Shown: piece by piece, positions 52,680 to 53,580 of the stretch
Position numbering within the stretch: the first letter of the stretch is position 1
Layout: every line of letters starts with the position of its first letter
DNA from: a virus
IMG/VR virus record: IMGVR_UViG_3300021256_000005
Reading direction: 5' to 3' (one strand)
Length of the DNA: 64,000 nucleotides
The notes under the pieces: generated by a model
Databases searched by the model: none
What the model was told of the DNA's origin: nothing
The model's input: the letters and a program-made list of their open reading frames with translations, nothing else
Program-made: the position numbers and the translations under genes

Positions 52680-53580
52680 ATTTTATTATAATATATATAT
52701 ATTAATTATATATTATATATATTTATATATTAATTATATATAAATTATATATTATTAATATAATATTATTACGTTTTATTCGGCAGTCGTGTCAACGACT
52801 GACGATAGCGTGACGTTGCATCGCAACGGAACGCGCCCCGCCGACAGGCGGCGTTGCCGACAGGCAACTGTATAATAGTATTATATATATTTATATTATA
52901 TATAATATATATTATATTTATATATATATATATATTATATATTTATATTACATACACTTAGACAGCTACGCCAGTAGCTGGCTAACGGTGCTGGTATTGC
53001 GTAGCAATGCCTGCGCCGAAGCGTCGCAGACATATATATTATATATATTATTATATATATATATATATATATATATATATATATTTATATATTATACAAT
53101 AAGATAATATATTTGTCAAGTATAAAATTATAATTATTTTAATAATATATTTAATTAAATATATTTAAGTATTATATTATATACTATATATTTAGTTAAA
53201 TATATTTAAGTATTATTATAATATATAATTATTTATATATTATTATATATCACTGTATATTATTATATAATAATTAAGCACCATAGTTATTATATATTAT
53301 ATATTACTAATTACATACATCATCAATTACATACATTACTAATTACCAGAGTTATTATTTTATTATTGTTTATTGTTTATATACTTTTGGCTCCTTTTGC
53401 TAACGCAAAAGATCACCAAAAGTTCGTATTCCTTCGCAAGCGAAGAAATACGAGTGTAATATATATAAATAAATATATTATTATATTTATATTATTATAT
53501 ATTTATTATATATTATTATATTATATATTTATTATTATTTATATTATTATATATCTATTATTCTGCTGAGTTATATTATA
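52680..53580. repeat. Pure A/T tracts (including a run of about 16 TA units at 53052-53084) interrupted by three GC-rich multi-hairpin islands
   Basis: The islands are 52781-52870, 52961-53031 and 53383-53455. Each consists of 2-4 adjacent 5-11-bp hairpins with 3-4-nt loops. The flanks, for example 52681-52770, contain no G or C at all. Confidence 0.85.

Follow-up and report, generated by a model that had tools for sequence, protein, structure and literature searches.

This study concerns three G/C-rich hairpin islands that lie in DNA composed only of A and T, within a tailed, SPbeta-related gut phage known from IMG/VR record IMGVR_UViG_3300021256_000005; the 64-kb stretch analysed (64,000 nucleotides) is referred to throughout as the window. 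The islands are found in a gap for which neither lists of open reading frames (ORFs) nor Pfam and PHROG scans gave a credible ORF, and which divides the window's genes into two blocks (Table 1). Leftward from the gap run the genes for a UvrD-type helicase and a YonO-like RNA polymerase, followed further on by an HU-like gene, homologues of YonJ and YonG, the terminase, structural genes and the lysin, while the rightward early block begins at 57448 with small genes and continues with GmrSD-like and ArdC-like genes. The element is read through in two assembly records only, namely the source of the window and an ENA assembly contig (NODE_590, 77 kb), which are near-identical to each other (99.995% identity over window positions 40825-62564, the whole gap included, with 1 mismatch in 21,740 bases). 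Exact-protein look-ups returned identical copies and a single relative, a phage with a 91% identical helicase that is represented by contigs L004 and L095.

Three hairpin islands in A/T-only DNA

Runs of at least 20 nt consisting solely of A and T occur 16 times in the window, all of them in the gap (52678-56591), and the three islands lie between the longest four, which measure 65-98 nt. The runs are degenerate TA repeats with periods of 2 and 10-15, and the run of about 16 TA units that the first-pass annotation had noticed at 53052-53084 was recovered there, from the sequence and a tandem-repeat scan, as (TA)16. That annotation had also described the islands as interruptions of A/T-only stretches, which is correct for the four flanking runs but not for the left flank of island 3 and the stretch 53097-53382, where the DNA is very A/T-rich rather than pure and the scattered G/C positions include a promoter and operator-like boxes. 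Nearest-neighbour profiling of the whole window placed the weakest 50-, 100-, 300- and 1000-bp segments all within 52638-53757, and the weakest 300 bp (53033-53332) fall between islands 2 and 3, at 6.5 standard deviations from the window mean. The proposal of extremely easily melted DNA carrying very stable hairpins was thus borne out, with the minimum of duplex stability located here at every scale and the islands forming clusters of stable hairpins. Easily melted DNA with hairpins able to form once it is opened is an accurate physical description of the region, and an easily melted A/T-rich segment, as looked for in a replication origin, is present.

A scan for perfect hairpins (minimum stem 6 bp), together with the sequence itself, recovered the hairpins reported for the three islands at the coordinates first given for them; the third hairpin of island 1, below the scan minimum, was read from the sequence. 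Perfect hairpins that contain G/C occur at 1.8 per kb in the gap as compared to 0.42 per kb elsewhere in the window. When the islands were folded as DNA and as RNA, as the first-pass annotation had suggested, all proved far more stable than dinucleotide-preserving shuffles (z from -1.95 to -9.3, Table 1). Islands 1 and 2 fold better on the plus strand and island 3 on the minus strand, by 5-11 kcal/mol with RNA parameters and in the same direction with DNA parameters, so that the preference is opposite on the two sides of the central core. It arises because wobble pairs and loop types fall on the favoured strand: in islands 1 and 2 the plus strand has the tandem GA/GA loop, G.T wobbles, all four GNNA tetraloops and two C-GNA-G triloops, and in island 3 the minus strand has three extra G.U (G.T) pairs and the loops GUUA (GTTA) and G-CUUG-C (G-CTTG-C). 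A strand-specific hairpin cluster, by which single-strand initiation signals of the G4/RSF1010 type are recognized, is accordingly found here.

The first hairpins of islands 1 and 2 share a module, in which an outer helix of 3-4 bp and a purine-purine 1x1 mismatch enclose a 7-bp stem and its loop (CAGnnnn-GNCA-nnnnCTG). The four variable stem pairs of the module differ on both sides between the two islands with pairing kept, and judged from their sequences the two hairpins are structural paralogues. Since the stems all differ and yet pair, it is pairing that appears to be maintained, which speaks against the hairpins being sites where a single protein binds double-stranded DNA. No island-like copies were found elsewhere in the window or in phage and plasmid collections, and megablast and blastn searches of the gap or the islands against phages and plasmids gave A/T low-complexity matches only. 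The islands were also considered as repeated or mobile elements (REP/BIME, IS200/IS605-derived elements, mitochondrial-type G/C clusters, IscB-linked transposon ends), and this was rejected as there are no similar copies. Segment 52400-57600 has no Rfam 15 match at E-values up to 1, and ARAGORN found no tRNA or tmRNA in the whole window. No intrinsic terminator (hairpin plus T-run) was reported by the scan for islands 1 and 2. In island 3 the 13-bp hairpin, followed by ACTTTTGG, was flagged as terminator-like on the minus strand, but its tail is weak and it does not qualify as an intrinsic terminator.

Table 1 Coordinates of the features discussed, in window positions unless a contig is named. 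Folding z and energies are given in the order plus strand / minus strand.
Feature	Position	Strand	Details
Island 1	52781-52870	+	four hairpins; folding z DNA -5.9 / -4.5, RNA -4.5 / -3.2; RNA folding energy -49.6 / -44.3 kcal/mol
Island 1, hairpin 1	52784-52801		7 bp, loop GTCA; outer helix 52780-52805, 1x1 G/A mismatch
Island 1, hairpin 2	52808-52834		tandem GA/GA internal loop; perfect part 52814-52828, 6 bp, loop ATC
Island 1, hairpin 3	52838-52851		5 bp, loop GACA
Island 1, hairpin 4	52853-52868		6 bp, loop GACA
Island 2	52958-53031	+	hairpin 1, long hairpin 2, alternative hairpin 3; folding z DNA -4.2 / -3.2, RNA -3.7 / -1.95; RNA folding energy -37.1 / -31.5 kcal/mol
Island 2, hairpin 1	52963-52980		7 bp, loop GCCA; outer helix 52958-52985, 1x1 A/G mismatch
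Island 2, hairpin 2 (long)	52986-53018		G.T wobble pairs on + strand
Island 2, alternative hairpin 3	53011-53029
Island 3	53383-53455	-	nested hairpin 53383-53423, then 13-bp hairpin 53424-53453; folding z DNA -6.5 / -9.3, RNA -7.2 / -9.2; RNA folding energy -28.7 / -39.6 kcal/mol
Island 3, inner hairpin	53394-53411		7 bp, loop TAAC
A/T-only run 1	52678-52771		94 nt; indels relative to L004
A/T-only run 2	52879-52950		72 nt
A/T-only run	53032-53096		65 nt
A/T-only run	53457-53554		98 nt
Central core	53032-53382		least stable DNA of the window; holds (TA)16
ORF-free gap	52565-57447		4.9 kb
Promoter-like site, helicase/RNA polymerase operon	52603-52631	-	TTGACT-17-TATACT; kept in L004
Promoter-like site toward A/T run 1 and islands 1 and 2	52656-52684	+	TTGACA-17-TATTTT, TG before -10
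Exact consensus sigma-70-type promoter sequence	53091-53119	-	TTGACA-17-TATAAT
Promoter-like site toward island 3	54009-54038	-	TGGACA-18-TATAAT, 11/12
Exact 19-nt box copies	53155, 53196, 54277	+
Exact 19-nt box copies	56620, 56658, 56696	-
Weaker 19-nt box copies	52639, 55411, 56501
G+T-rich, C-poor non-coding DNA	54401-56380	+	G 22.5%, C 6.6%, T 45%; many short TTAGTTAC-type repeats
Putative early promoter and operator cluster	56381-56850	+
Perfect palindrome	56476-56497		TTTTTGACA-TTTA-TGTCAAAAA
Putative promoter	56815-56843	+	TTGACA-17-TATACT; conserved
Candidate structured leader or non-coding RNA	56850-57447	+	598 nt; upstream of the first early gene
UvrD-type helicase	50825-52564	leftward	gap-side end of the leftward block
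YonO-like RNA polymerase	48035-50815	leftward	926 aa; PF05183 match
HU-like gene	46811-47098		same operon as the polymerase
ROOL RNA, full-length	43126-43683	-	Rfam RF03087; 300 bits (gathering score 99)
beta-CASP/RMMBL metallo-beta-lactamase nuclease (aCPSF1 / RNase J-like)	28532-29971	-	among structural genes
3679-aa single ORF	15217-26256	-	tail region
IscB	8694-10010	-	438 aa; NCBIfam equivalog 286 bits (cut-off 175); Pfam RRXRR and HNH
Stretch upstream of IscB	10005-10260	-	245 nt; folding z -4.2
Hairpin with TCCACTWCGTTMC loop	L007 9150-9228; L015 5990-6068; L064 5427-5505; L099 735-800		Enterocloster phage lineage
Group I introns	L064 12550-12884; L085 9013-9343		Rfam RF00028

Promoter-like sites, repeated boxes and the rest of the gap

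Two promoter-like sites, at 52656-52684 (plus strand) and 54009-54038 (minus strand), aim inward at the islands, each on the better-folding strand. The site at 52656-52684 has both hexamers identical in L004, with one substitution in the spacer. The site at 53091-53119, the sole 12/12 match in the window, reads leftward through (TA)16 and islands 2 and 1 toward the helicase gene; one such match lies within chance expectation, and a function for it can therefore only be presumed. Promoter-like matches are not enriched in this A/T-rich DNA (30 found, with 38.6 expected from shuffles), hence we treat each of them as putative. The TTGACA that had been pointed out in the minus strand of the first hairpin of island 1 has no matching -10 element and was not reported by the promoter scan.

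A partly palindromic box of 19 nt, TTAAA-N4-TTTAAGTATT, has six exact copies, all in the gap, and with up to 2 mismatches 15 copies were found where 1.6 would be expected. Two exact boxes are held by the core (53155-53214, starts 41 bp apart), and three lie 38 bp apart at 56620-56714, where the boxes are identical in the related phage and the spacers between them vary. The box is probably an operator or iteron of a putative phage DNA-binding protein, which could be a repressor rather than an initiator.

Further to the right, the G+T-rich segment at 54401-56380 aligns to the related phage at 81-83% identity with many indels, and read on the minus strand this C-rich, G-poor DNA resembles a Rho-loading site. 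The segment that follows (56381-56610) is 94-96% identical between the two phages. The 598-nt leader upstream of the first early gene folds with a z of -7.8, and comparison with its L095 homologue gave 7 compensatory changes, 17 one-sided changes and no broken pair among 154 predicted pairs. No Rfam match was obtained for this leader, which from its sequence is a candidate new large RNA. Just past the right end of the window, positions 15649-17789 of contig L096 encode a protein with a GmrSD_N domain and an ArdC-N / MPTase-PolyVal protein, and by their domains these early proteins look like anti-restriction or anti-defence functions.

Close relatives and analogous regions in other YonO-type phages

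The related phage aligns with the window over 55152-58036, with 81-96% nucleotide identity in the gap and 77.8% in adjacent coding sequence. Where the two can be compared, the gap is thus better conserved than neighbouring coding sequence and is not neutral filler. The islands themselves are missing from the contigs of this phage, as L004 stops at the edge of island 1 and L095 starts at 55152. Scans of IMG/VR, JGI metagenomes and GTDB genomes with the helicase and the polymerase gave no other close relative, pattern scans for the flank plus hairpin of island 1 and for paired boxes gave no match, and the translations of spurious ORFs that span the islands are absent from the protein collection. 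In relatives whose helicase is 43-47% identical, the genes are ordered differently and the gap is absent.

Three contigs from different samples and assemblers stop in or beside island 1 (L004 at 52782, L002 at 52832, L003 at 52864), and the GenBank records of CB457P1, CB473P1, CB457P2 and CB473P3 begin inside or at the edge of an analogous A/T-only region. A genome terminus at such ends was considered and rejected, because the contigs break at varying points and low-complexity repeats account for this. A/T repeats are likely to break metagenome assemblies, and such regions should therefore be systematically under-sampled.

Approximately 120 loci encoding YonO-like polymerases were collected. 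Among those from IMG/VR and GTDB, two lineages have clusters of A/T-only DNA immediately before the polymerase operon, or three with the GenBank record MT835481. The Enterocloster phages (PMBT24, CB473P1, CB457P2, CB473P3 and L064) and the L069/L138 type both have A/T-only DNA with long embedded hairpins, which has not been described before, and the MT835481 scaffold record begins in (TA)n, some 215 nt before the operon's first gene. The Enterocloster and L069/L138 regions are like the window region in genomic position, near-pure A/T composition, stable hairpins and short repeated boxes nearby, and the apex GCAAGC is common to their hairpins and a hairpin of island 3. Their hairpins, however, are A/T-rich and long, with stems of 17-30 bp, and show no difference in stability between the strands, whereas the islands are short, multi-hairpin, G/C-rich and strand-specific, without alignable homology to them. 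In one Enterocloster hairpin, pairing is kept through compensatory changes at 6 of 27 pairs, and a second has a conserved 13-nt loop, TCCACTWCGTTMC, on varying stems; the ACTACG in this loop may resemble the nick site of pMV158-family rolling-circle plasmids, which we keep as a lead and not as a claim. The hairpins of these lineages fold equally well on both strands and keep pairing through compensatory changes, which is what an element working at the DNA level would be expected to do. Ordinary short intergenic regions occupy this position in Spbetavirus and in the IMG/VR phages with the closest polymerases (46% identity). Across the loci compared, the architecture is recurrent but patchy among YonO-type phages, and as far as their sequences tell the embedded structures are non-homologous between lineages.

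A candidate replication origin and its alternatives

The feature is real, statistically strong and unusual, and the sequence comparisons establish that the central control region of the phage contains a constrained and apparently cis-acting element that bears structure; its hairpins may act either as DNA or as RNA. We prefer to read the islands as part of a DNA-level control region, a candidate replication origin with strand-specific hairpin signals, to which we assign a probability of about 0.4. The extreme and strictly A/T composition speaks for this, since it is hard to explain as an RNA spacer and yet suits an unwinding element. The ~950 bp of A/T-only DNA around (TA)16, with two boxes for a phage DNA-binding protein, would make up a very large unwinding element that could be opened by supercoiling, by protein binding and by inward transcription from the flanking promoters. 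Once the strands were separated, islands 1 and 2 would fold on the plus strand to the left of the core and island 3 on the minus strand to its right, and the folded hairpins would keep the bubble open and may also serve as single-strand initiation signals. Primers laid down on the hairpin-bearing strands would then grow away from the core, leftward at islands 1 and 2 and rightward at island 3, to give the leading strands of a bidirectional origin. We infer the opening in vivo, the folding of the hairpins in DNA rather than RNA, the priming at this site and a role of the box-binding protein as an initiator beyond that of a repressor.

With this scheme fits the opposite strand preference, which would make the strand bearing each hairpin cluster the template for a leading strand that moves outward, and the boxes of the core resemble iterons. 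The location is also in favour of an origin, at the switch in skew and in transcription direction between divergent gene blocks, and repeat-bearing non-coding stretches between divergent operons are used as origins by plasmids and phage satellites (PMC7145576). Within the window, cumulative GC skew is lowest in the gap; because the genes to the left are all on the minus strand and those to the right all on the plus strand, it is useless as independent evidence, and being fully confounded with gene orientation in both the window and PMBT24 it was rejected as such. The likeness to unwinding elements and single-strand initiation signals that had been drawn from the letters alone holds for the geometry, with opposite strand preference about the weakest DNA. 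The gap contains no DnaA boxes (TTWTNCACA), and the search for genes next to it turned up no initiator, no primase and no replicative helicase.

These absences count against an origin, as does the fact that skew and gene orientation are inseparable here, and several further points have to be set beside them. The ~950 bp of A/T-only DNA far exceeds the need of any unwinding element known to us, and stems of 5-7 bp are too short for unaided cruciform extrusion. The adjacent early genes resemble anti-defence genes, and the wobble pairs, the CUUG and GNNA loops and the island-directed promoters on the favoured strands suit RNA at least equally well. The region is also not a conserved feature of the group, given that the closest polymerase relatives are without it, and the equivalent intergenic region in SPbeta-like phages contains the packaging start (bioRxiv 10.1101/2021.11.22.469490).

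Set against known systems, the gap resembles origins built from repeats and an unwinding element, as in the PLE satellite (PMC7145576), plasmids and phages, with which it shares an ORF-free region between divergent blocks at the skew switch, the least stable DNA, repeated and partly palindromic boxes and nearby promoters. Its putative unwinding element is about ten times longer than theirs, strictly A/T and interrupted by strand-specific G/C hairpin clusters, with neither DnaA boxes nor an adjacent initiator gene. Single-strand signals familiar from general knowledge (the G4 complementary-strand origin, RSF1010 ssiA/ssiB and rolling-circle single-strand origins) likewise pack 2-4 hairpins into 70-140 nt. 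Those of the G4/RSF1010 type act on one strand only, as the islands too are strand-specific, and ssiA/ssiB are placed, like the islands, on opposite strands on either side of a melted core. No sequence similarity accompanies this likeness, and the window element belongs to a double-stranded tailed phage of a Firmicutes-type host for which no cognate primase was identified. The ori/rep elements of yeast mitochondria, again from general knowledge, have three short hairpin-forming G/C clusters (A, B and C) in near-pure A/T DNA with adjacent promoters and a possible link to transcription-primed replication, but they come from another domain of life with another polymerase type, and the yeast clusters are repeated and mobile whereas the islands are unique. 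The region of SPbeta between yonR and yonP, where packaging starts (pac; bioRxiv 10.1101/2021.11.22.469490), occupies the corresponding place between the YonO operon and the divergent early block, and contains an A/T-rich patch plus a strand-asymmetric G-poor stretch, which in SPbeta is shorter and lies upstream of yonP. It differs in being ~950 bp long and not A/T-only, in lacking hairpin islands, and in the order of its elements, with no sequence similarity. We file the window region as a variant of origin-type control regions, and not as a member of any defined family.

The main rival, a serious one although we hold it to be somewhat doubtful, takes the islands as structured RNAs of 70-90 nt, or as leader and antisense elements that would protect or regulate the helicase/RNA polymerase operon. 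A rightward transcript from 52656 would carry islands 1 and 2 and a leftward transcript from 54038 island 3, while the operon could also be read from the consensus promoter at 53119; the A/U-only spacers would be rapidly degraded by host RNases or by the beta-CASP/RMMBL nuclease that the phage encodes, and the hairpin clusters would persist. G/C-rich islands in A/T-rich DNA are, as generally known, a classic signature of structural RNA genes, and no Rfam family, tRNA or tmRNA was matched here. Each favoured strand has its promoter-like site upstream, that at 52656 being conserved in the related phage, but such matches are not enriched over expectation, and the U-tract terminator that would end a transcript is lacking after islands 1 and 2 and weak at island 3. 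The wobble pairs are confined to one strand, the loops G-CUUG-C and GNNA are characteristic of RNA, and the phage has other structured RNA in ROOL and the covarying leader, while antisense pairing of the kissing type would need loops larger than the 3-4 nt seen here. Purely A/T spacers and the strand-symmetric analogous hairpins of other phages are left unexplained if the islands are RNAs.

It is rather improbable that the region is or contains pac, with the terminase and a DNA-bending protein acting on flexible A/T DNA, hairpins or boxes marking the site and the first headful running leftward into the late genes. SPbeta-like genomes open between yonR and yonP, in the divergent region upstream of yonP-yonO (bioRxiv 10.1101/2021.11.22.469490), the record of BUCT082 begins inside the same region, and by synteny the gap is its positional counterpart; blastn and inspection by eye, though, found no sequence similarity between the two, and the order of elements differs. 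In PMBT24, which has an analogous A/T-only hairpin region, PhageTerm placed the packaging site ~9 kb away from it (PMC11035940), and the PMBT24 region is therefore not the packaging site. The HU-like gene in the polymerase operon would suit packaging, as would the early anti-defence genes across the gap, which would enter first if, following general knowledge of tailed phages, the last-packaged DNA is injected first. Known pac sites, again by general knowledge, are not hairpin clusters, and the three contig ends at island 1 are better explained by low-complexity A/T repeats.

The first-pass annotation had further likened the hairpins to promoters of phage RNA polymerases, which here would be the YonO-like enzyme acting on extruded or single-stranded hairpins in the manner of the phage N4 virion polymerase. 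Stable short hairpins with 3-4-nt loops do lie in easily melted DNA beside the polymerase gene, and the YonO promoter sequence is undetermined (PMC5467207). This idea found no support and is highly improbable: the hairpins have no sequence in common and do not reappear upstream of late genes or elsewhere in the window, the sole mapped YonO start, in SPbeta, lies upstream of yonK within the late cluster and not in the counterpart of the gap (PMC5467207), hairpin promoters are used by a polymerase of the N4/T7 type, to which YonO-type enzymes (PF05183) bear no relation, and most YonO-type phages do not have such a region. We also find it quite improbable that the region has no dedicated function and reflects runaway microsatellite expansion, with the islands as relic terminators or insulators, or as selfish G/C clusters like those of yeast mitochondria. 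Degenerate TA repeats whose length varies between relatives, and an architecture that is patchy among YonO-type phages, would be in keeping with it; the islands are nevertheless unique and not repeated, their stems are intact, an architecture common to two of them is preserved by compensatory changes, U-tracts are lacking in islands 1 and 2, and the gap, where comparable, is more conserved than coding DNA. An undescribed kind of phage element appears unlikely to us. In it a kilobase of strictly A/T DNA would be a switchable melted zone, and the strand-specific hairpin modules, with their paralogous CAGnnnn-GNCA-nnnnCTG units, would act as outward leading-strand signals or be released as a self-trimming small-RNA array; such elements would have arisen repeatedly at one position upstream of YonO-type operons in several lineages of gut phages.

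Phages with a YonO polymerase, SPbeta-like ones among them, are widespread among the Firmicutes of the gut, and the SPbeta and PMBT24 literature cited here reports no replication origin for either phage. The window region is a compact, sharply bounded candidate for an origin-type site, and if the preferred reading as an origin is correct it would be the first defined origin for the YonO-polymerase group and an example of opposite-strand hairpin start signals in a tailed phage. Should the islands instead be RNAs, they would join ROOL and the ~600-nt leader in a phage rich in non-coding RNA.

Some observations from elsewhere in these genomes may be added. The ROOL RNA, the sole match in the window above an Rfam gathering score, sits within the late operon in a 610-nt gap between the YonJ and YonG homologues. 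The beta-CASP/RMMBL nuclease shows sub-threshold similarity to the model of type VII CRISPR Cas14. The tail-gene region holds the IscB gene, with a well-folding stretch upstream that could be a guide RNA, and a single ORF of 3679 aa, which is unusually long even for a tape-measure protein. Group I introns are found in the late region of IMG/VR contigs that resemble the Enterocloster phages.

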